From the NCBI GenBank assembly GCA_042850255.1, contig AP031373.1:420001-452000 (forward strand): 32,000 nucleotides of DNA, written 5' to 3'. The notes below the pieces were generated by a model. The model was not told the DNA's origin and ran no database searches. It saw nothing but the letters and a program-made list of their open reading frames with translations. The translations under genes and the position numbers were made by a program. The DNA is from Nanobdellota archaeon. GTDB lineage: Archaea > Nanobdellota > Nanobdellia > Nanobdellales > Nanobdellaceae. Of this stretch, positions 2,042-25,451 are shown one piece after another. Numbering within the stretch: position 1 is the first letter of the stretch; each line of letters opens with the position of its first letter.

Positions 2042-2449
2042 TTATTCTCCTATAATTGTTACAAATATTTTTCTTTCCCTTGGACCATCAAATTCTGCTA
2101 AAAATATCTCTTGCCAAGTTCCTTTATATAGATCTCCATCTTTTATTGGTAAAACATAAAACTGTTTAAATAATGAAGATAATAAATGAGAATCTGCATT
2201 ATTGTCTATTAAATTATGATAATATTTTTCATTTTCTGGAACTAGTTTTTCAAATAAATTTAAATAATCCTTTCTAATATTTTCTTCATCTTCATTTGCA
2301 AATAGACCTGCAGTAGCATGTGGTACAAATATTAATATTATTCCATTCTTTATTCCAGATTTTTTAACAATTTCTCTTATATTTTTAGTTATATTTATTA
2401 CTTCCTTCCTTTTATTTGTTTTTAAATAAAATTCTTCTTGATAGATCAT
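2042..2449 (-). CDS. YjbQ/UPF0047 family protein (secondary thiamine-phosphate synthase-like)
   Basis: It is 135 aa. The motifs GIILIFVPHATAGL...NEDE, ...NADSHL and ...GTWQEIFLAEFDGPRERKI are characteristic of UPF0047. Confidence 0.8.
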   Translation of the reverse strand: MIYQEEFYLKTNKRKEVINITKNIREIVKKSGIKNGIILIFVPHATAGLFANEDEENIRKDYLNLFEKLVPENEKYYHNLIDNNADSHLLSSLFKQFYVLPIKDGDLYKGTWQEIFLAEFDGPRERKIFVTIIGE

Positions 2450-2484
2450 TATATATTTTTAAGTTTATTATTTATAATGTTATA

Positions 2485-2688
2485 ATGAGATTTATTGAAG
2501 CTTTAAAGAAATCTTTTTTATTCATGGTTGGCGTGATAGGTTTTTTCATATTAATTATAATAGCTGCAGTGTTTATAACATTTGGTAGTATATATAATAG
2601 TCTATTTGGACAGGTTTTAGGATTTATAATATTATTTACAGCTATTGTATTACTTGTAGCATTAATTAAATGGATTAAGAAATCTTAA
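2485..2688 (+). CDS. small membrane protein (67 aa, two predicted TM helices)
   Basis: The tracked ORF starts at 2416 but overlaps the divergent yjbQ-like gene. The ATG at 2485 gives MRFIEALKK followed by two hydrophobic helices. No family recognised. Confidence 0.5.
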   Translation: MRFIEALKKSFLFMVGVIGFFILIIIAAVFITFGSIYNSLFGQVLGFIILFTAIVLLVALIKWIKKS

Positions 2689-2717
2689 TTTATATTATTT
2701 ATTTAAAATAAAAGATT

Positions 2718-3449
2718 ATGATAAAAGTAGGTACATGTGGTTTTCCAATATCAAGGAAAAAATATTATCAGGAATTCAATGTTATAGAATTAAATAATAC
2801 ATTTTATTCTATACCAGCTATAGAATGGGTTAAAAAAATTAGAAAAGAAGCACCAGAAAATTTTGAATTCACATTTAAAGCATTTCAAGGAATAACTCAT
2901 GATGTAAATTCATTTACGTGGAGAAGGTCTAATATAAAAAATTATAAAGAATTAAAGGGAAAAGTTGGATATTTAAGAAATACAAAGGAAGTATTTGAAT
3001 TTTGGGAAAAACAAGAAGAAATCGCAAATATATTAAAGGCAAAAATTATTGTAATACAATTACCAAATTCATTTAAAGATAATGAAGAAAATATAAAAAA
3101 TGCATATAATTTTTTTAATTCTATAAATAAAAAATATAAAATTGCAATTGAATTGAGAGGATGGAGTAAAGAAAATAGGAAAAGAATATGTAAAGAATTT
3201 GATTTAATAGATATTGTAGATATAAATGTAGAAGATCCTGTATATGATTCTAATATAAAATATTATAGATTACATGGTTTGCATGAAAATAATAAATTAA
3301 TATATAATTATGATTATTCTATCGAAGAATTAAATAAAATAAGAGAAAAAGTATTAAAATATAATAGAGAAGAAACTTATGTTATGTTCAATAATTCAAT
3401 GATGTATAAAAATGCAAAAGAATTTTTAGAATTAATAAAAAATGTATAA
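2718..3449 (+). CDS. DUF72 (UPF0759) family protein
   Basis: The N-terminal VGTCGFP... and ...YYQEFNVIELNNTFYSIP, and the internal FEFTFKAFQGITH, are typical of DUF72. Size is 243 aa. Confidence 0.75.
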   Translation: MIKVGTCGFPISRKKYYQEFNVIELNNTFYSIPAIEWVKKIRKEAPENFEFTFKAFQGITHDVNSFTWRRSNIKNYKELKGKVGYLRNTKEVFEFWEKQEEIANILKAKIIVIQLPNSFKDNEENIKNAYNFFNSINKKYKIAIELRGWSKENRKRICKEFDLIDIVDINVEDPVYDSNIKYYRLHGLHENNKLIYNYDYSIEELNKIREKVLKYNREETYVMFNNSMMYKNAKEFLELIKNV

Positions 3450-9311: not shown

Positions 9312-10706
9312 ATGATCAATATGGTTAATTTTGATGCTGCATTAACAGGATTCTCTTTAGCAGTTCATATAATTTTTGCTTCTATAGGTATAGCTTTACC
9401 AATAATTATTGCTATAGCAGAATTTATTGCAATAAAGTATAAATCAAAATATTATGATATATTATCTAAAAGATTAACAAAAGCTTTTGCCGTATTTTTT
9501 GCTGTAGGAACTGCTAGTGGAATTGTTGTAGCTATAGAGTTATTAATTCTTTGGCCTAAATTTATGTCTTTAGTTAGTAAAGTTGCTATTTTACCTTTAT
9601 ATATAGAAGTATTTGCATTCTTTACAGAATCTATCTTATTAAGTATATATATTTATCTATGGGACAGATTTAAAAGTAGGATAAGACACTGGATTCTAAT
9701 AATTTTTATTGCTTTAGGTGCTTCTTCTTCAGGTTTACTAATAACAATGATAAATGCATTTATGAATACTCCAGTAGGTTTTAACATTCCTTATTATTTA
9801 TCAACAGGTAAAATAATAGATGTAAATCCATTTGCAGTATTTAATACACCAACTACATGGGTGGAAATTGGACATGTAATATTTTCATCAATATTTACTG
9901 CTTCATCTTTATTTTTAGCTTATGCTTCTTATAAAATATTAAAAAGTAATGGAGTATTAAAGGAATATTATAAAAAATTAGCAAAGATTTCTGGAGCAGT
10001 TGTTATAGTAAGTTTATATTTAACTGGAGTTTATGGAATATTATCTATACATAATTTAATGGTTAATCAACCAGAAAAATATGCAGCTTTGGAGTTAAAC
10101 TTTAATTATGGTCCAAATGTTCCAGAAGTAATAGGAGGAATTTTGGTAAATAATAGTGTAATAGATGCTATATATATTCCTGGATTAATGAGTTATTTAG
10201 CAACAGGAAGTTTTAATGGAGTTATACCAAAGCAAGATACCTTATTATATTATAACCAATCTACATGGCCTCCAGTTTCATTTGTCCATAATGGATTTGA
10301 CTTTATGGCAATATTAGGATTTGTAGAAGGAGCATTTTTCTTAATTGTTACAATTTTATGGATAATCAATATAGAACCTATAAAGAAAAAGATATATAAT
10401 AAATTACCTAAAAAAATATTTTCAGATCCTTTTGATAGTCCTCTATTTTTAAAATTATTTATCGTTTCTGGAATATTATCTTTAATATTACTAGAAGATG
10501 GTTGGATTACTGCAGAAGTTGGTAGGGTACCTTGGATAATATATAATGTAATGACAATTGCAGAAGCTGCAAATACATCTCCATCAATAATACCAATAGG
10601 GATTGCTATGATAATATTTTATATAGCAATTATACCATTAACATTTTGGTTTATTAAAGAAGTGTTGAAAAGGGAAAATTTGGAAAAAGAATTAGAAGAA
10701 GAATGA
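9312..10706 (+). CDS. cydA: cytochrome bd-type quinol oxidase subunit I
   Basis: His19, Glu99 and His188 fall at or near the E. coli heme-ligand and conserved positions by hand count. The signature AEVGRVPW (GRQPW motif) lies near the C-terminus. It has about 9 TM segments and a short Q-loop. Size is 464 aa. Confidence 0.88.
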   Translation: MINMVNFDAALTGFSLAVHIIFASIGIALPIIIAIAEFIAIKYKSKYYDILSKRLTKAFAVFFAVGTASGIVVAIELLILWPKFMSLVSKVAILPLYIEVFAFFTESILLSIYIYLWDRFKSRIRHWILIIFIALGASSSGLLITMINAFMNTPVGFNIPYYLSTGKIIDVNPFAVFNTPTTWVEIGHVIFSSIFTASSLFLAYASYKILKSNGVLKEYYKKLAKISGAVVIVSLYLTGVYGILSIHNLMVNQPEKYAALELNFNYGPNVPEVIGGILVNNSVIDAIYIPGLMSYLATGSFNGVIPKQDTLLYYNQSTWPPVSFVHNGFDFMAILGFVEGAFFLIVTILWIINIEPIKKKIYNKLPKKIFSDPFDSPLFLKLFIVSGILSLILLEDGWITAEVGRVPWIIYNVMTIAEAANTSPSIIPIGIAMIIFYIAIIPLTFWFIKEVLKRENLEKELEEE

Positions 10707-11626
10707 ATTTATATATAATTATAAATTATATAATTCTTTCAGTAGTATTTTCTCTATTATCTATAGAACTAATATCTGCACTAACATTATTTTATAATAA
10801 AAATAAGTTTAATGATATTAAAAATATAATCAGTCCAGTTTGGGAAATGGTTGGTACATTTATTATATTTTTTGTTGTAAATACTGAAGTCTTATATCCT
10901 GATTTATTACCAATAATAGCAAAATTATATACTATACCAATATTATTGATAGCATTATTTATTATAAGTAGAAACGCATTTTTAGCATATTCAGAACAAA
11001 TGTGGAAGGGAAATAAAATAGATTCTGTACTATTAGCTAGAATTTATTCTATATCTACATTAATTATATCTTTTTTATCATTAGTTGTACTTATTTCTGT
11101 TCTTACAGGTTCAGGTGTTAATAATAATTTGACTAATTTTAGTTTTATACAATTTTTTTCAAATTATTATACATTAACACTAATTTTAGGAGTAATATTA
11201 GTATTATTTGGACTTTCTTTTGTATTTTATAAATTAGAAAATAATAAAAAATTATCTCCAATATTTACATTGTTAGGATTAATAATTTTAATATTCTCTT
11301 TTTATAAGTTAGGATTATATATAAATTTTGTTATATATATTATTTCTATAATAATATTTTTGATATCACTTATTTATTATTTATATGATTTTTCAAGGAA
11401 ATATATTATATTCTTGATTAATTTAATATCCTTTTTGTCTATAGTAATACTAAATTATGGAAGAATATTTAATAATCAATCTTTACTAAATTATTTAAAT
11501 AATACCCCAGTTTTACCTGCATCCTTTATAATAACATTACTGGGAGGAACTTTATTAATAATAATGTTGACTTTATTTATTTATATGTTTAGCAGACCAA
11601 GTCAGGGAGGAAATAAATATTATTAA
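10703..11626 (+). CDS. cydB: cytochrome bd-type quinol oxidase subunit II (divergent)
   Basis: It overlaps cydA by 4 nt. ISPVWEMVGTFIIFF...YP...LY.P..L....IISRNAFL aligns with the CydB P.W..NE.WL...FP..Y..LY.P..L..LI.RG pattern. It is polytopic, 307 aa, and otherwise of low similarity. Confidence 0.7.
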   Translation: MNLYIIINYIILSVVFSLLSIELISALTLFYNKNKFNDIKNIISPVWEMVGTFIIFFVVNTEVLYPDLLPIIAKLYTIPILLIALFIISRNAFLAYSEQMWKGNKIDSVLLARIYSISTLIISFLSLVVLISVLTGSGVNNNLTNFSFIQFFSNYYTLTLILGVILVLFGLSFVFYKLENNKKLSPIFTLLGLIILIFSFYKLGLYINFVIYIISIIIFLISLIYYLYDFSRKYIIFLINLISFLSIVILNYGRIFNNQSLLNYLNNTPVLPASFIITLLGGTLLIIMLTLFIYMFSRPSQGGNKYY

Positions 11627-16889: not shown

Positions 16890-18407
16890 ATGAGAATAGA
16901 GAAACCTGAAATACACTATAATGCTTTAGATGTTTTGGCAAATCAAATTGTTGGTATGACTATAGAATATGGTGAGGTAGATATAGATTTTGTTTGGAAT
17001 ACTATAAAAAGATTATATATTTATAAAGATTTAAGTTATGAAGAATTTTTGGAAATTATAAATTTCCTAGATTCTATAAGAATATTAAGAAAAGATAATA
17101 ATAAATTAATAAAAACTAGAAAAGGACTGTTCTATTTTTTAGATAATATTTCTATGATACCTGATGAAAAATCTTATGATGTATATGATATAACTACTGG
17201 CCAAAAGATTGGGATACTACATGAAGAATTTGTTGCAAAGCATGGTAATATTGGTACAATTTTTATATTAAGAGGATTACCATGGAAAATTGAAAAAATT
17301 GATAAAAAAAGAATATATGTATCTTTACAAAACGATTTTGAATCTGCTATACCTTCCTGGGAAGGGGAATTATTACCTGTACCATTTGAAGTTGCACAAG
17401 AAGCTCAGGATTTAAAGAAAGAATTATTGGATCTAGAAGAATTAAGGAATCAAGAATTATACTTTTATCCAGATAAAAATAATATATATATTGAACAATA
17501 TAAGGATTGGTTCATAATACATGCTCCATTTGGGAATAAAGTAAATGATTCTATATCTAGAATATTATCTCAAATTATTTCTGATAAATTTGGTATAGTT
17601 GTAGGGATAAAAACAGATCCTTATAGAATATTACTAAAAGCAGGTTTTATTAAAAAAGAAGATATAAAAAATATATTAGAAAATATAAAACCTGAAGAAG
17701 TAGAATTAATATTGGAAAAGGCTATAGTAAATACTGATTTATTTTTATGGAAATTTTCACATGTAGCAAAAAGATTTGGAGTAATAAGAAAAGATGCGGA
17801 TTATTCTAGATCTACTTTAAGGAGAATACTAGAACATATTAACAATTCTCCAGTATATAAAGAAACATTAAATGAATTATTTATAGAAAAATTAGATATA
17901 AAGAATACCAAAAAAGTATTTGAAAAAATACAAAATGGAGAAATAAAGGTAAATATTGTTGATAAAGAAACTTTATCACCTTTAGGTGTATTAGGATTAG
18001 AACAATATGTTTCTGATGTATTAATTTCTGATAAATGGAGAGAAATATTAAAATTAGTAAAGGATAGAATAGAAAATACAGAAATGATATTGGTTTGTAT
18101 GGCGTGTAAATCAAAATATAAAATAAAAGTAAAAGATTATAAACAGGGATTTAAATGTAAAAAATGTGGTGGAGAATATTTTGGAGTTGCAAAAAATGAA
18201 GAAGATATTAAAGATGAAAAGAAACTAAATATTACTGCAGAATTATTAAAAAATTATGGATATAAATTTTTATTTATATATGCGGGAAGGGGAATTAGTT
18301 ATTTATCTGCAAAATTTTTGTTAAAAAAAGAATATAAAAATGAAGAAGAATTGTTATTAGATATAATTGAATATGAAAAAAGAGGATTAAAGTTTGCAAA
18401 AAGATAG
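16890..18407 (+). CDS. free-standing C-terminal module of an Lhr-type (large helicase-related) protein: winged-helix/DEAD_assoc domain plus Zn ribbon; no helicase core
   Basis: It begins ...YNALDVLANQIVGM, the LDVLAQ motif that follows the RecA-like domains in Lhr proteins. It ends with CMAC-x19-CKKC (a Zn ribbon). No Walker A, DEAD or motif VI is present anywhere in the ORF. The upstream neighbour is on the opposite strand. A TATA TTTATAAGG lies at -29 to -21. Confidence 0.65.
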   Translation: MRIEKPEIHYNALDVLANQIVGMTIEYGEVDIDFVWNTIKRLYIYKDLSYEEFLEIINFLDSIRILRKDNNKLIKTRKGLFYFLDNISMIPDEKSYDVYDITTGQKIGILHEEFVAKHGNIGTIFILRGLPWKIEKIDKKRIYVSLQNDFESAIPSWEGELLPVPFEVAQEAQDLKKELLDLEELRNQELYFYPDKNNIYIEQYKDWFIIHAPFGNKVNDSISRILSQIISDKFGIVVGIKTDPYRILLKAGFIKKEDIKNILENIKPEEVELILEKAIVNTDLFLWKFSHVAKRFGVIRKDADYSRSTLRRILEHINNSPVYKETLNELFIEKLDIKNTKKVFEKIQNGEIKVNIVDKETLSPLGVLGLEQYVSDVLISDKWREILKLVKDRIENTEMILVCMACKSKYKIKVKDYKQGFKCKKCGGEYFGVAKNEEDIKDEKKLNITAELLKNYGYKFLFIYAGRGISYLSAKFLLKKEYKNEEELLLDIIEYEKRGLKFAKR

Positions 18408-18436
18408 TTTATAAATATTTTTTATAAATAAACTTA

Positions 18437-19117
18437 ATGGCTAATGTAGTTAAAACGGCATATGATTTATATAAAAAAGATATAATATCTGGAATATTAT
18501 TTTCTTTAGCTATAACTGTTATGGGTTTACTATTTGTTATCCCAGTAATAGGCGCAATAATATACTCATTTGTTTTCCCAAGACTTTTAGTATGGTATTA
18601 TCAAAAATTATCTGGTGAAAAATTAAATCCAAACTATAAAGTATCATTTATATCAATATTTATTCCATCCCTAATATTATCTATTGGAATATTTTTATTA
18701 TTACTTGTATTAATTTTTGGAATATTTTCTTATGGATTAGGAGGAACGATTAATTCTAGTTATATTCTTAATACTCAATATCTTTATAACCAAAATATAT
18801 TTTCTACTTATTTAGGTATTTTATCAATTGTAATAATATTTATAGGTATTGTTATCTACTTATTTTCTTTATATTCTTTTTATGGATCATTATTTGGTAA
18901 AGTAGATAAATATAAATTAGATCTTTGGAATTCCATAGAAATATTTGTATATTATCTATCTATAGGACTTATAGTAAGTGTAATATTTGATATAATAGAT
19001 GCTTTATTTTCTTTAGCATCTCCAATAGCAGGTTTTATAATAGGATTAATTTTCTTGATATTATTTGGAATAGAAATACAATATTTAGTTCCAATGGTTG
19101 TTATGAAGAATTTATAA
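18437..19117 (+). CDS. paralog 1 of a tandem triplicated multipass membrane protein family (226 aa)
   Basis: It has about 5 TM helices. Blocks shared with the two downstream genes are AYxLYKKDI, P(I/V)IGAIIYS, FPRLLVWYYQKLSGEKLNPNYKVSFISIFIP, LFSLYSFYGSLFGKVDKYKLD and LVPMVVMKNL. A TATA TTTATAAATA lies about 25 nt upstream. Confidence 0.8.
   Translation: MANVVKTAYDLYKKDIISGILFSLAITVMGLLFVIPVIGAIIYSFVFPRLLVWYYQKLSGEKLNPNYKVSFISIFIPSLILSIGIFLLLLVLIFGIFSYGLGGTINSSYILNTQYLYNQNIFSTYLGILSIVIIFIGIVIYLFSLYSFYGSLFGKVDKYKLDLWNSIEIFVYYLSIGLIVSVIFDIIDALFSLASPIAGFIIGLIFLILFGIEIQYLVPMVVMKNL
18577..18666 (+). repeat. 90-nt tract 100% identical to 20094-20183 (copy in paralog 1)
   Basis: By hand alignment, cccaagacttttagtatggtattatcaaaaattatctggtgaaaaattaaatccaaactataaagtatcatttatatcaatatttattcc is identical in both genes. 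The flanking codons diverge immediately on both sides. Confidence 0.9.
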
Positions 19118-19257
19118 TTTTTTAAATATCTAGATATATTACATGGTTTTTTAAAAGTCTATTAGATTTGTAAAGGGGCTATATAGATTTAATATAAAGA
19201 AAGAAAGATAAAATTTACAAAAATATAATTTATAAATATTTCTTTTAAGTAAAATTA

Positions 19258-19917
19258 ATGACTAATATAATTCAAACAGCCTATAAATTATATAGAAAAG
19301 ATATATTGTCCGGAAGAATATTTTCTTTGGTTACCATATTATTGCAGACATTAGTTTTCTTTCCAATAGTTGGTGCTATAATATTCTCATACTTTTTTCC
19401 AAAGGTATTGACCTGGTATTATCAAAAATTATCTGGAGAAAAACTAAATCCAAATTATCATGTTTCGTTTATTTCTCTCCTTGTACCATCTATGATTGCT
19501 AGTATTGGGGGTATATTTTTGTTTTTGGGAATATTTAGTGTAATTGGTCTTTTATCTCATTCATCAAGTTATTCAATATATAATTTATCTGCTTTCCATG
19601 CATCTTCGGGATTTTTCTCAGTTTTTATGGTATTTGAGATAATTGCACTTATAGTATATATACTATCATTATATTCTTTTTATGGATCTTTATTTGGTAA
19701 GGTAAATAAATACAAGTTAGACTTTTCTAACTCTATTAAAATATTTGCATATGTTCTTTTAATAGGAATTGTTGTATATGGAATATACTATATATTAATT
19801 CTTGTATTTTCTCCTATGGCTGGTTTTGTAGGGGAGATAATTGGTACGATATTTATGATAATTATTGGAATACAGCTTTATTACTTAGTGCCAATGCTTG
19901 TTGCAAAGAATCTATAA
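19258..19917 (+). CDS. paralog 2 of the triplicated membrane protein family (219 aa)
   Basis: It has the same block structure (WYYQKLSGEKLNPNYHVSFIS, LSLYSFYGSLFGKVNKYKLD, LVPMLVAKNL). The 5' and 3' flanks are conserved with paralog 1. Confidence 0.8.
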   Translation: MTNIIQTAYKLYRKDILSGRIFSLVTILLQTLVFFPIVGAIIFSYFFPKVLTWYYQKLSGEKLNPNYHVSFISLLVPSMIASIGGIFLFLGIFSVIGLLSHSSSYSIYNLSAFHASSGFFSVFMVFEIIALIVYILSLYSFYGSLFGKVNKYKLDFSNSIKIFAYVLLIGIVVYGIYYILILVFSPMAGFVGEIIGTIFMIIIGIQLYYLVPMLVAKNL

Positions 19918-19947
19918 TTTTTAAATATCTATATATTAATATTTTTT

Positions 19948-20595
19948 ATGAACTTTACAGGGTATGTAAAAGATACCTATAATTTATACAAGAAAAATAT
20001 AGTTTTAGGATTTGCTTATGGTATATTAAAAAATATATTGGTTTTAGTAAATGCTATACCAATTATTGGTGTATATATTTATTCTTATTATTACCCAAGA
20101 CTTTTAGTATGGTATTATCAAAAATTATCTGGTGAAAAATTAAATCCAAACTATAAAGTATCATTTATATCAATATTTATTCCTCAGATATTACAAAACA
20201 TATTATTATTCGTATCATTCTTAGTTATAATCTATTTTTATTTATCTTCTTATTTTTTAACATTTAAATATAGTTTTTCCTCTTTATTATCCGGATTATC
20301 TATTTCATATTCTATAATGTTGGGTATATCTTTCCTTATCTATTTATTTTCTTTATATTCATTTTATGGTTCCCTATATGGTAAAGTAGATAAATATAAT
20401 TTTGAGGTTAATAATTCTTCCATTTTATTCTTTAATATATTATCTTTGTCATTGGTATTTGGAATAATAGAAATTCTAGTTTCTTTGATTGTTTTAATTA
20501 ATACTTTATTATTAATAGTACCTATATTAATATGGATACTTTTCTTTACTTCAATTTTAGATCTACTACCAATGATAGTTATAAAGGATATGTAA
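19948..20595 (+). CDS. paralog 3 of the triplicated membrane protein family (215 aa)
   Basis: It has the same blocks (YPRLLVWYYQKLSGEKLNPNYKVSFISIFIP, LFSLYSFYGSLYGKVDKYNFE, LLPMIVIKDM). The remainder is the most divergent of the three. It starts 30 nt after the paralog 2 stop. Confidence 0.8.
   Translation: MNFTGYVKDTYNLYKKNIVLGFAYGILKNILVLVNAIPIIGVYIYSYYYPRLLVWYYQKLSGEKLNPNYKVSFISIFIPQILQNILLFVSFLVIIYFYLSSYFLTFKYSFSSLLSGLSISYSIMLGISFLIYLFSLYSFYGSLYGKVDKYNFEVNNSSILFFNILSLSLVFGIIEILVSLIVLINTLLLIVPILIWILFFTSILDLLPMIVIKDM
20094..20183 (+). repeat. 90-nt tract 100% identical to 18577-18666 (copy in paralog 3)
   Basis: As for the partner copy. The homologous stretch in the intervening paralog 2 (about 19397-19486) differs at many positions, especially at both ends. 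Confidence 0.9.
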
Positions 20596-20668: not shown

Positions 20669-23347
20669 ATGGAAAAGAAATATAAAGGAGGACATAGAAA
20701 TATATCTTTTATGATGAAAGGTAAGACTTTGGCTGCCATAGGTGCATTAACAGCACTAGGTTTGGCAATATATGCACAATCTGGAACACCAACAATTGGA
20801 CAATTGGCTCAAGCAATGAAGACAAATCCAACAGCATGGACAGTAGTAGTAGGAGCAAATGCAAAGGCATCAGATGTTGTCGGGGCTTCAAATATAATTG
20901 CAGCTTTAGAAACATTTACTTCTGTACCAACAACTTCTTCAGTTAATACATCCTCATTACAAGTACAATTACAAGGAACAATTCCAGTATTACAAAATTC
21001 ATATCCATTATATACACAAGGACAACCATTGTACTTAGGTGATTCATTAAGTACATCAATACAAACAATACAAGTTGGATCAGGATCATTTACAGCAAAT
21101 TACAATGGACAACAAACAACATATTCATATACAGCATATGTACAAACACAACCATCATATACATTAAGTTATGTACAAGCAACACCGGGACAATCTACAC
21201 CAGAAGTTGCATTAGCAACAACCAATCCACAATCATCTCCAATTGCATTAACAGTATACTTCACTCCAGCATTAAACTTAACACAATTATCACAATCACC
21301 ACAACCAATACAAATATTTAATACAACATATTATATAGTACCATCTTCAAATTCTAATTATATTAACTTTGTACCAGCAGCACAAGTTGTAACATTAAAC
21401 GTAAACCAATCAACAACATTTAATGGTGTACAAATTACATTACAAGGTGTAACTGCTCAATATTCTTCAGGTACAACAGTTTCATCTGGAGTCCCAGCTG
21501 CAGTATTAAATATAAATGGACAAACATATACAGTACAAGTAGGTTCACAATTATATGTTGATGGAGTAAATATATTAGTAGTAAACATATATGGACCATT
21601 ATCAACAGTTGTAAGTACTACACAAACTGGATATGTTGAATTAGTACTAGGTACTTCTGGATATCAATTGCCTATATCAACAACACCAGCTAATATATTA
21701 ACATCTTCAGGACAAGTATTAGATAATGCACAAGTTCAAATGTCAGAACAAGGAACTAATTTAATATCATCAATTACATTCTTATTCCCACAATTACCAG
21801 AAATTGGAACATCAGGAAATTACGGAGTTGTTAATGGACATTCATATCCATTACCATTATTCAATTATGAATTAACATTCCCATCTGTAACAATACCAGC
21901 ACAAAATTCCGATTTAGTACAAGTACAAGCATCAACTGTTGGAAGTATGGAATATCAATTTACATTATCATATCCAGATGCAGTAACAGGAAAGACATAT
22001 TCATTCACATTATTCAATTATAATGGAGACTTAGTACCATTCCAAACTGGTACAGTAACCACATCAGCACCTGTTACAACTACTTATTACTATGCAGGTG
22101 AATTTGTACCAATAAACATGGCTACACCTATAAATGCAACTACTAATTATACTTCAATGACAATTACAACAGGACAATACTTCGCAGTATATAATCCAAC
22201 TGCTGGAGCATCACAAATATTCCAATTACAATCTATAACAACCGGATCAAATGGACAACCAGAAGCTACAGTAGAAGATGTAATATCTGGACAAACATAT
22301 ACATTATATCAAGGACAACCATTAATAGTTGCAGATGGTGTAGCAATAAATGTAACAGCAATTAATACTAATGAAAGTTATGTAACATTATCTGCTCCAA
22401 ATGGATATGGTGTAAATCTAAACTCATTATGGGTAGTACTACCAGGACCATCTCCAACTCAATCACCAGTACTTAGTTTAACAGGTTTTGGTAATACATC
22501 AGTATCTGTAGAAATATCTGAATATTATCCAGGATACACAGGATTAAATACTAATCCAGATAATGCAACATTTACATTAAGTGCAACAAACGGTATAGGA
22601 GCTCCAACTACAACAGATATACCAAAAGGTGTAGTAGAGCCTTTAACAGTAACATCAGGAACAACGACAGTAAGCTACTGGTTAGATATGGCAGGTACAT
22701 ATATAACGGAAACATCAACAGGAAGTTCAGGAACACAAACATTGGCAGTATATGTACCATTAACACCAATTACATATCCAATTTCATTAGCACCAACAGG
22801 TGCACAAACACAGCAAGAAACAACAACAGTAGGTGTTGGACAAACAATACCTGGAACTCAACTAACAGTTGTCGGAGTATCTGGTGTATCAACAACAGGA
22901 TATTCACAACCAACAGCATTAGTAGGAAAAGTAATATTAGATACACAAGTAACACCTTCAATGAGCGATATAGTAGTTGTAGGAGGACCAGCAGTTAACA
23001 TGTTAGCAGCAGATGCAATAAGACAATGGGTAGCTGAAATGAATTCAACATTAGCAATGCAATTACCATCTTCAGGATATATAACAGGTTCACAATTACA
23101 ACCAGTATTACAACAATTAGGAGTTGACTTTGGACCAGGTACATCATTAATATTTGTAGGAGGACAATATCCAAATGAATTAGTAATATTTGGATGGTAC
23201 GGAAATGATACAACAGAAGCAACAGAATTATTCGCAAACTACTTACTATATGGAACAGATGCAGCACAACTAAGCAATTACACATTAGTATTATTGAACG
23301 ATCAGCAAACAGTAAACGGTTTACCATCAGTTACACCAATTCAATAA
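20669..23347 (+). CDS. S-layer protein (Methanococcales/Nanoarchaeum-type S_layer_N and S_layer_C motifs)
   Basis: It has a signal-peptide-like MMKGKTLAAIGALTALGLAIYA. The N-terminal VVVGANAKASDVVGASNIIAAL and C-terminal DIVVVGGPAVNMLAADAI match the conserved ends of archaeal S-layer proteins. Composition is T/S/Q/N/V/G/Y-rich with few charged residues, and I hand-counted 13 N-X-S/T sequons. Codon use and GC differ from the neighbours, as expected for a highly expressed gene. An alternative start is at 20711. Confidence 0.85.
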   Translation: MEKKYKGGHRNISFMMKGKTLAAIGALTALGLAIYAQSGTPTIGQLAQAMKTNPTAWTVVVGANAKASDVVGASNIIAALETFTSVPTTSSVNTSSLQVQLQGTIPVLQNSYPLYTQGQPLYLGDSLSTSIQTIQVGSGSFTANYNGQQTTYSYTAYVQTQPSYTLSYVQATPGQSTPEVALATTNPQSSPIALTVYFTPALNLTQLSQSPQPIQIFNTTYYIVPSSNSNYINFVPAAQVVTLNVNQSTTFNGVQITLQGVTAQYSSGTTVSSGVPAAVLNINGQTYTVQVGSQLYVDGVNILVVNIYGPLSTVVSTTQTGYVELVLGTSGYQLPISTTPANILTSSGQVLDNAQVQMSEQGTNLISSITFLFPQLPEIGTSGNYGVVNGHSYPLPLFNYELTFPSVTIPAQNSDLVQVQASTVGSMEYQFTLSYPDAVTGKTYSFTLFNYNGDLVPFQTGTVTTSAPVTTTYYYAGEFVPINMATPINATTNYTSMTITTGQYFAVYNPTAGASQIFQLQSITTGSNGQPEATVEDVISGQTYTLYQGQPLIVADGVAINVTAINTNESYVTLSAPNGYGVNLNSLWVVLPGPSPTQSPVLSLTGFGNTSVSVEISEYYPGYTGLNTNPDNATFTLSATNGIGAPTTTDIPKGVVEPLTVTSGTTTVSYWLDMAGTYITETSTGSSGTQTLAVYVPLTPITYPISLAPTGAQTQQETTTVGVGQTIPGTQLTVVGVSGVSTTGYSQPTALVGKVILDTQVTPSMSDIVVVGGPAVNMLAADAIRQWVAEMNSTLAMQLPSSGYITGSQLQPVLQQLGVDFGPGTSLIFVGGQYPNELVIFGWYGNDTTEATELFANYLLYGTDAAQLSNYTLVLLNDQQTVNGLPSVTPIQ

Positions 23348-24756: not shown

Positions 24757-25140
24757 ATGAAAGATGAAATAAAAATGTTTTTAGAAAGAGCTGAAGGATT
24801 CTATGATAATGCTATATATAATTACAATAACGGAAGATATGATTTAGCATTATTTAATATAGAACAGGCAATACAATTATTAATTAAAGCAAAGTTATTA
24901 GATTTAAAAGGTTACTATGAAAAAACTCATAATTTAAGAAAATTATTAAGCGATTTAAATAATATATTAAATAGTAGGGAATTAGAAGAATTTATTAATA
25001 AAAATATAGAAATAATAAAAATAATAGAGTTATCCTATATTGGTGCTAGGTATTTATTTTATGAATTTGATAAAACTGATGCGGAAAAAGGGATAAAAAT
25101 ATATAAAGAATTAAAAGAAATATTATGGAAAATTTATTAA
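24757..25140 (+). CDS. HEPN domain protein (KNTase_C/PF05168-like)
   Basis: It is a 127-aa all-helical protein. F..A...Y..A.....G.Y..A.F...QAIQLL.KA, ...THNL..LL and ...ARY are typical of the small HEPN proteins paired with minimal nucleotidyltransferases. It overlaps the MNT gene by 16 nt. Confidence 0.78.
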   Translation: MKDEIKMFLERAEGFYDNAIYNYNNGRYDLALFNIEQAIQLLIKAKLLDLKGYYEKTHNLRKLLSDLNNILNSRELEEFINKNIEIIKIIELSYIGARYLFYEFDKTDAEKGIKIYKELKEILWKIY

Positions 25141-25451
25141 GAAAAGAATATTTTGATAATTATTTAAAATATGTAAAAGAAATAGAAGAATTTGCAAAAG
25201 AATATTTTGGCAACAATTTTTATCAGTTAATACTATTTGGCAGTATAATAAATGGCAACTATTCTATAGGATTATCAGATATAGATATAGCAATAATATT
25301 AAGAAAAGATATTGATTTAAAAGAAAAGGTAAAATTTTTGGTTGAAATAGATAAAAAATATAAAGATCATCCATTTGAAATACATATAATTGATATAAAT
25401 AAATGGGAAAGTTGGTATAAAAGATTTGTAAAAAATTATAAAATAATCTAG
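25125..25451 (+). CDS. minimal nucleotidyltransferase (MNT, Pol-beta superfamily)
   Basis: LFGSIINGNYSIGLSDIDIAIIL matches the GS-x(n)-SDIDL nucleotidyltransferase signature. Size is 108 aa. Confidence 0.82.
   Translation: MENLLRKEYFDNYLKYVKEIEEFAKEYFGNNFYQLILFGSIINGNYSIGLSDIDIAIILRKDIDLKEKVKFLVEIDKKYKDHPFEIHIIDINKWESWYKRFVKNYKII

Follow-up and report, generated by a model that had tools for sequence, protein, structure and literature searches.

Recurrent short-patch gene conversion as the likely source of a 90-nucleotide identity island between tandem membrane-protein genes of nanoarchaea

Duplicated prokaryotic genes can evolve in concert through gene conversion that depends on RecA-family proteins, as tufA and tufB do in Salmonella. 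For archaea, Archibald and Roger reportedly described in 2002 gene conversion between paralogs encoding chaperonin (thermosome) subunits. Conversion takes a different form in the pilE/pilS system of Neisseria and the vlsE system of Borrelia, where a single expression site receives variable segments from silent, truncated cassettes. The general properties of interlocus conversion have been described (PMC3966223), and the GOT1 paralogs of Tigriopus illustrate islands of divergence or identity in paralogs that convert only in part (PMC3728101). Here we analyze a stretch of 32,000 nucleotides (nt) from an archaeon of the phylum Nanobdellota (contig AP031373.1, positions 420,001 to 452,000; hereafter the window, with positions counted from its first letter), in which three tandem paralogs, par1, par2 and par3, encode membrane proteins of an uncharacterized family. 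The two outer paralogs, par1 and par3, share a 90-nt tract that is identical at every position. Very probably, this identity is the footprint of a very recent, short and non-reciprocal conversion between paralogs, which have been evolving in concert for a long time and of whose conversions this is the most recent. Relatives of the source organism carry a tandem pair of these genes, here termed A (upstream) and B (downstream). Homogenization of the pair within genomes is recurrent, sharply bounded and includes synonymous sites: A and B have diverged to approximately 40–50% nucleotide difference nearly everywhere, while one segment has been re-homogenized repeatedly in each genome and so, less markedly, has a second motif.

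The locus adds a new case, well replicated, to a known process, and does so in an uncharacterized gene family of archaeal symbionts with reduced genomes; no published description of the locus, or of gene conversion in Nanoarchaeota, was found in the literature searched. As in tufA/tufB, homogenization is non-reciprocal and identity-dependent, and paralogs within a genome are more alike than orthologs, synonymous sites included. Unlike in tufA/tufB, homogenization is limited to about 75–130 nt of a gene of about 650 nt, the rest having diverged almost to saturation; the genes are direct repeats lying next to each other, and their host is an archaeal ectosymbiont with a reduced genome. The thermosome paralogs share with this locus an archaeal setting and a conversion that recurs in particular lineages and affects only part of the gene, and as subunits of one hetero-oligomer they provide a precedent for a reading in which identity itself is selected; the A/B family differs from them in being uncharacterized, a complex of the A and B proteins would be hypothetical, and the tracts are much shorter. 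The eukaryotic nuclear GOT1 genes of Tigriopus likewise show a mosaic of converted and unconverted parts within one paralog pair, with boundaries thought to reflect selection or divergence barriers, but here the relation is reversed, with divergence nearly throughout and identity confined to a small island. With pilE/pilS and vlsE the locus has in common that conserved blocks flank variable blocks in tandem envelope-related genes and that short-tract conversion is the molecular event. Here, unlike in those systems, all copies are complete genes, and it is the conserved block that moves while the variable blocks stay.

In the window, nt 18577–18666 of par1 and nt 20094–20183 of par3, both on the plus strand, agree at 90 of 90 positions, and the adjoining base is mismatched at each end; beyond the tract, par1 continues with ATCC and par3 with TCAG. 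A preliminary description of the window had reported this identity and its sharp limits, and both are borne out. A self-comparison of the 32-kb window, whose G+C content is 23.7%, identified the tract as its sole exact repeat of at least 25 nt. The tract extends from the third base of codon 47 of par1 to the second base of codon 77, lies in frame in both copies, and encodes PRLLVWYYQKLSGEKLNPNYKVSFISIFIP (P48–P77 of par1). Outside it, par1 and par3 are 59% identical in nucleotide sequence, and where they agree in amino acid the codon is shared at only 56% of positions. Conservation of the peptide combined with codon bias therefore does not explain 30 identical codons in a row: all 29 degenerate codons of the tract are identical, an outcome with a probability of about 5e-8 even when identity of the peptide is granted. 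A permutation test, applied to the longest run of identity between par1 and par3, gave P<0.001.

The intervening paralog, par2, contains a diverged homologous segment at 19398–19487 (plus strand) that matches the tract at 67 of 90 positions. Most of the differences lie at the two ends of the segment, in agreement with the preliminary description, and a 41-nt core (19414–19454) matches at 39 of 41 positions; this core is likely a trace of an older homogenization across all three copies. The same description had named par1 and par3 as the most divergent pair overall. That place belongs to par2 and par3, nucleotide identity outside the tract being 0.50 for par2/par3, 0.59 for par1/par3 and 0.64 for par1/par2.

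The comparison with relatives covered 12 further assemblies with a syntenic locus, which represent 10 distinct relatives, L006 being near-identical to L002 and L010 being the same record as L003. Some are short-read metagenome-assembled genomes (MAGs), and the set includes the complete genomes of two cultured strains, Nanobdella aerobiophila MJ1 (AP019769) and Nanopusillus acidilobi 7A (CP010514). Nine of these ten relatives have their highest-scoring A–B segment (76–133 nt) at the position of the window tract (equivalent to 18535/18593 to 18666–18687), and the permutation test gave P<0.001 in each of the nine. Identity between the two copies is 130/133 in N. aerobiophila MJ1, where all three mismatches are synonymous, consistent with drift after an older conversion. 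In the Nanopusillus and Nanobsidianus genomes it is 84/84, 91/92, 92/93, 83/84, 82/84 (N. acidilobi 7A), 91/95, 77/81 and 71/76. The 5′ boundary of the tract falls at the same nucleotide in all eight of these Nanopusillus and Nanobsidianus genomes, and at the 3′ side the window tract and that of N. aerobiophila share their boundary.

The tract is absent from L002/L006 and from L004, in which A and B differ at 25/74 and 32/74 nucleotides, respectively, and the Nanoclepta pair shows only peptide-level similarity at this position. The longest exact runs between A and B in these three lineages measure 9–15 nt, and both genes are intact. In Nanoclepta minutus and NZ13-N (L016–L018), the tandem pair is located upstream of the gene for a stand-alone C-terminal half of the Lhr helicase (Lhr-C), between Lhr-C and a PMT_2 glycosyltransferase gene and away from the S-layer gene. 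The presence of the pair in these lineages indicates that it is ancient, and its location there, not beside the S-layer gene, that local gene order has been rearranged. More distant family members (L019–L021) were uninformative, consisting of single genes or short contigs.

The distances within and between genomes point to copying between the paralogs. Within a 74-nt core of the tract, A and B of one genome differ at 0–5 positions, compared with 2–10 between orthologs; outside the tract, the p-distance is 0.39–0.50 between A and B and 0.06–0.35 between orthologs. A site-pattern test compared the 84-nt tract with its flanks in the eight Nanopusillus/Nanobsidianus genomes. The tract contained no paralog-fixed site, 7 genome-concordant sites, where the two paralogs agree in every genome, and 6 more at which the minority state occurs in both paralogs of a genome, whereas the flanks contained 80 paralog-fixed or paralog-disjoint sites and a single genome-concordant one. 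About half of the genome-concordant changes in the tract are non-synonymous. Shared synonymous states are also present: TAT>TAC in both genes of L011, TTT>TTC in both genes of L008 and of L009, and TTA>CTA in both genes of L012.

A pairing test on the same eight genomes gave a concordant result. The A and B tracts of these genomes can be paired in 40,320 ways, and no other arrangement gave as few differences as the true one (P=2e-5); for synonymous differences alone, P was 1e-4. Synonymous codon differences between orthologs amounted to 0.134 in the tract and 0.137–0.152 in the flanks. Because sites in the tract sort by genome, and because synonymous change between orthologs equals that of the flanks, the tract is free to drift and has been copied repeatedly between the paralogs. 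The preliminary description had offered recent short-patch gene conversion, homogenizing a constant segment while the remainder drifts, as one of two readings. The site patterns and the pairing test strongly support it, and the process also recurs across the relatives.

A mechanism consistent with these observations would begin with a strand of one copy invading the other at the only stretch similar enough for pairing. Homologous recombination would then bring about a non-reciprocal transfer between direct repeats 0.7–1.5 kb apart. Flanks of only about 55–60% identity would block extension of the heteroduplex, or selection would remove longer tracts, and either could explain why sharp boundaries recur at the same places. 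Each event would renew the identity needed for the next, a positive feedback that would make the island self-sustaining, and lineages drifting beyond the tolerance of pairing, such as L002/L006, L004 and Nanoclepta, would escape conversion. Nanoarchaeota have been reported to keep their genes for recombination and repair as a complete set (PMC6142677).

The direction of the latest event can be approached through the tract's distances to other copies. Per 90 nt, the tract of par1 and par3 differs at 16–17 positions from L002_B/L006_B, at 23 from par2 and at 30 from L002_A. Both of its ends are nearer to the B orthologs L002_B/L006_B than to par2: the 16-nt 5′ end has 5 differences to B orthologs versus 9 to par2, and the 33-nt 3′ end has 5–6 versus 12. 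The central 41 nt are nearly the same in all three window genes. As judged from these distances, par3, a B-type gene, was probably the donor of the last event and par1 the recipient. The history of the window may thus comprise two steps, an older event that homogenized the core of all copies and a very recent copying of 90 nt from par3 to par1. Since par2 has no exact run longer than 23 nt in common with either partner in the tract, it would have been a poor substrate for conversion and was skipped.

A second, weaker region of homogenization covers the motif IYLFSLYSFYGSLxGKVDKY, at 18852–18915 in par1 and 20336–20399 in par3 (both plus strand). These are the best-scoring segments of the two genes in this region, with 58/64 matches, versus 52/64 between par1 and par2 and 49/64 for the remaining pair in the window. 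A and B agree over this motif at 39/39 positions in L007, 69/72 in L011 and 60/65 in L008. The preliminary description had placed a second tract of about 85% identity here. Its identity value stands (55/64, or 86%, for 18861–18924 against 20345–20408), whereas its coordinates were off by one: the offset is 1484 rather than 1483, and at the latter just 22/64 positions match. In two Nanobsidianus stetteri genomes, L011 and L013, the A genes continue after the motif YGSILGKVNKL with the B-type sequence SIYFEKSLIL, matching B at 69/72 and 66/72 nucleotides, respectively; the other Nanopusillus A genes have SIDAEKSLTL after the second motif. This sequence pattern indicates a lineage-specific extension of the second conversion tract in N. 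stetteri.

Several considerations weigh against the conversion history as reconstructed here. Both the recombination machinery and the cause of the sharp boundaries are elements that we infer. The direction from par3 to par1 rests on few sites, and the central 41 nt show 2 differences to par2 versus 6 to L002_B. The exact count of zero differences in the window could owe something to polishing by the assembler, and near-identical repeats can be over-homogenized in short-read MAGs; the pattern nevertheless holds in both cultured strains, whose genomes are complete. Paralogs of one genome might also be kept alike at non-synonymous sites by parallel selection on the peptide, which does not, however, account for the shared synonymous changes.

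Alternative explanations differ in how much of the conversion they accept. It is possible, though we doubt it, that conversion is real and that the island persists for adaptive reasons: A and B would need the same helix-loop-helix segment, either as a pseudo-symmetric heteromer or for contact with a shared, evolving cytoplasmic partner, and conversion would act as a device for their co-evolution instead of arising neutrally from leftover homology. Consistent with this, the tract peptide differs markedly between genera and is matched within each genome (WYYQKLSGEKLNPNY in the window, WYYTKVTGDNINPDY in Nanopusillus and YYYEKLTKEKLDSKL in Nanobdella), and the share of non-synonymous changes among genome-concordant sites, about one half, fits as well. 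The tract also spans the most conserved motif of the family, including the invariant P48, its 5′ boundary is constant to the nucleotide in the eight genomes, and in the window the functional-looking A/B pair, par1 and par3, was converted while the extra copy par2 was not. Nevertheless, the segments differ clearly in L002/L006, L004 and Nanoclepta, where both genes are intact. A–B identity is therefore not obligatory, and homology-limited conversion alone predicts the same pattern. We regard it as unlikely that identity of the A and B segments is itself the object of selection, imposed by a pseudo-symmetric heteromer or by one rapidly evolving partner, with conversion co-adapting two otherwise rapidly diverging envelope proteins of a genome-reduced ectosymbiont, and that the 90-nt repeats could also yield par1::par3 fusion or deletion variants.

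The other reading in the preliminary description was that the nucleotide sequence itself is functional, for example as a regulatory-RNA target or a recombination site; a structured RNA and a site for site-specific recombination were considered here as well. The identity of every synonymous site in the window and the occurrence of the tract at one position in many genomes would be expected of such an element, which we nonetheless consider very unlikely. The tract sequence varies between genomes, and both par2 and the L002 and L004 pairs lack the identity while their genes are intact. That description had treated a normal synonymous rate of the tract in relatives as evidence against constraint, and the rate is normal, synonymous change being as frequent in the tract as in its flanks, so constraint fails as an explanation. 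Comparison of the predicted RNA folding of the tract with shuffled sequences gave no signal (z of −0.08 on the plus strand and +1.5 on the minus strand), and a scan of the window against Rfam returned two tRNAs elsewhere and no match in the tract. The tract was free of terminator-like sites and not enriched in promoter-like ones, and no copy of it was found in viral contigs.

An assembly artefact, in which a collapsed or chimeric repeat made the copies look identical, is scarcely credible. Assemblers can pop small bubbles in near-identical repeats, but this could at most have erased one or two residual differences. The tract stands in frame in two otherwise different intact open reading frames (ORFs) on a 773-kb contig, and the same pattern in independent assemblies rules out an artefactual origin; among them are the two complete genomes, which keep a few mismatches (82/84 in CP010514, 130/133 in AP019769). 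Programmed variation is just as improbable. Under it, the tracts would be anchors for cassette swapping of the pilE/pilS or vls kind, or a template and variable repeat pair of a diversity-generating retroelement (DGR). The arrangement of conserved blocks between variable blocks in tandem genes for surface-associated membrane proteins, beside an S-layer gene, is suggestive of such a system, and DGRs are known in nanoarchaea (PMC4372165). However, the variable regions strictly follow orthology, as the 80 versus 1 flanking sites in the eight genomes illustrate, and no A/B chimeras were seen in the relatives compared. All copies are full-length ORFs, each with its own start codon and TATA-like box, and there are no silent truncated cassettes. 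A DGR is further opposed by the absence of a reverse transcriptase domain from the window ORFs of at least 100 amino acids (aa) and by the nature of the mismatches: the window tract has none, and those in relatives are mostly transitions in either direction, with some transversions, and are not adenine-specific. The suggestion in the preliminary description that variable segments are shuffled around fixed anchors is thus not supported by the data.

The three paralogs lie in tandem on the plus strand. The first, par1 (18437–19117; 226 aa), is an A-type gene and the probable recipient of the latest conversion; it scores 276 bits against the family hidden Markov model (HMM), and its C-terminal SPIxGxII region resembles that of A-type genes in relatives. 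It is followed by par2 (19258–19917; 219 aa), also assigned by the family HMM, a tandem duplicate of par1 that stands outside the latest conversion, and by par3 (19948–20595; 215 aa), the probable donor, which sequence distances place as the ortholog of P0004/L002_B. Outside the tract, the p-distance of par2 is 0.36 to par1 versus 0.50 to par3, and that of par3 is 0.30 to L002_B versus 0.44–0.50 to par1 and par2. By these distances, par3 is classed as the B ortholog, and par1 and par2 as A-like duplicates. The TATA-like box of each copy, read from the sequence upstream of the gene, has the form TTTWTAAATA.

The family, made up of 6-helix membrane proteins of Nanopusillaceae-like nanoarchaea, is small. 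Only 29 relatives were retrieved when 1.84 billion representative proteins were searched exhaustively with HMMER, and a word-indexed profile search of proteins added only a few homologs (Nanoclepta, NZ13-N). A word-indexed protein search with par1 returned nothing beyond the three window proteins, and a first genome scan with window-specific peptide patterns gave no match; the 28-sequence family alignment was too diverse for deriving scan patterns. Searches of the three paralogs against Pfam and NCBIfam yielded no family, the only hit being a sub-threshold, unrelated match of par2. One Nanoclepta homolog bears the UniRef name DUF4013, a label that we rejected: DUF4013 was not among the Pfam matches of 28 family members at E<=1. 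A further pattern-driven metagenome scan had a single match, in a marine metagenome contig (L001, 6539–6637), where a 2725-aa phage-like protein contains YYQKFSGEKLNPN and LLPYYQKFSGEKLNPN, the latter matching the core of the tract peptide at 12/13 positions. This match is probably a chance product of the scan, and the protein was rejected as a relative.

An AlphaFold2 model of par1, built with 31 family sequences, predicts an 8-helix membrane bundle (predicted local distance difference test score 93.8, predicted template modeling score 0.88), with helices at residues 2–14, 16–32, 38–59, 67–102, 112–143, 145–152, 163–192 and 196–225. On this model the tract runs from within helix 3, whose C-terminal half it covers, through the loop at 60–66 and over the first third of helix 4. 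A Foldseek search of the model against the PDB found no fold match (best E 0.85, template modeling score <=0.28). From the distribution of lysine and arginine and the positive-inside rule, the charged loop in the tract and the second motif (GSLFGKVDKYK) are probably cytoplasmic; by the same rule, the uncharged loop at 103–111, which varies in length, would face outward.

The flanks of the array are conserved. To its left lies the Lhr-C gene (16890–18407, plus strand; Pfam WH_Lhr and DEAD_assoc), with synteny kept. Its product is 88% identical in amino acid sequence to that of L002/L006 (‘Nanopusillaceae archaeon KM4331-08’), 77–81% to those of Nanopusillus, Nanobsidianus and Nanobdella, and 68% to that of Nanoclepta, values that place the source of the window as a Nanopusillaceae-like nanoarchaeon. 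Lhr-C occurs as a separate gene of 505–509 aa in every relative fetched, which indicates that the split of Lhr is stable; no gene for the N-terminal helicase half was seen among those of the window. To the right, a gene for an S-layer-like protein (20669–23347, plus strand; Pfam S_layer_C) is likewise syntenic, standing in the same place in L002 and L003.

Three copies of the family gene occur in the window alone, each relative compared having exactly two in tandem. The region upstream of par1 (18366–18436, plus strand), which comprises the last 42 nt of Lhr-C and the TATA-like TTTATAAATA, is copied at 19187–19257 with 56/71 identity, and the longer repeat family D3 (18366–18512 and 19187–19333) is 79% identical. 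From this sequence evidence, par2 is best described as the product of a tandem duplication with a unit of about 800–821 bp that included the last 42 nt of Lhr-C. The left end of the duplication would lie inside the 3′ end of Lhr-C and the right end about 20 nt beyond the stop codon (19119–19137 versus 19918–19936). An origin of the third copy by unequal crossing-over at the tract was rejected, because par2 is A-like over its whole length and bears the upstream region of par1.

Other features of the window were recorded in passing. Genes for cytochrome bd oxidase subunits I and II (9312–11626) stand between a peroxiredoxin gene and an MGMT-like gene. In L002, the closest relative, the peroxiredoxin and MGMT-like genes adjoin directly (2110–3030), so cydAB was either inserted in the window or lost from L002. 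The window also encodes peroxiredoxins and superoxide dismutase. Despite the very small genome, a toxin-antitoxin-like pair of HEPN and nucleotidyltransferase genes and a PIN-domain gene are present, at 24757–25451 and 1140–1508.

The locus provides a clean natural example of an apparently self-sustaining gene-conversion island, replicated over ten distinct relatives, two of them with complete genomes, and its sharp boundaries fall repeatedly at the same positions. A practical warning follows for work on this family: trees and orthology calls based on its conserved motif will group by genome and not by gene. The source archaea have some of the smallest genomes known; paralogs are rare in them and recombination has been little studied, and here conversion at the same spot repeats across a whole archaeal family. 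The tandem membrane-protein pair beside the S-layer gene, conserved, uncharacterized and with a confidently predicted fold that has no solved structural relative, is a candidate for a role in envelope or symbiosis biology.

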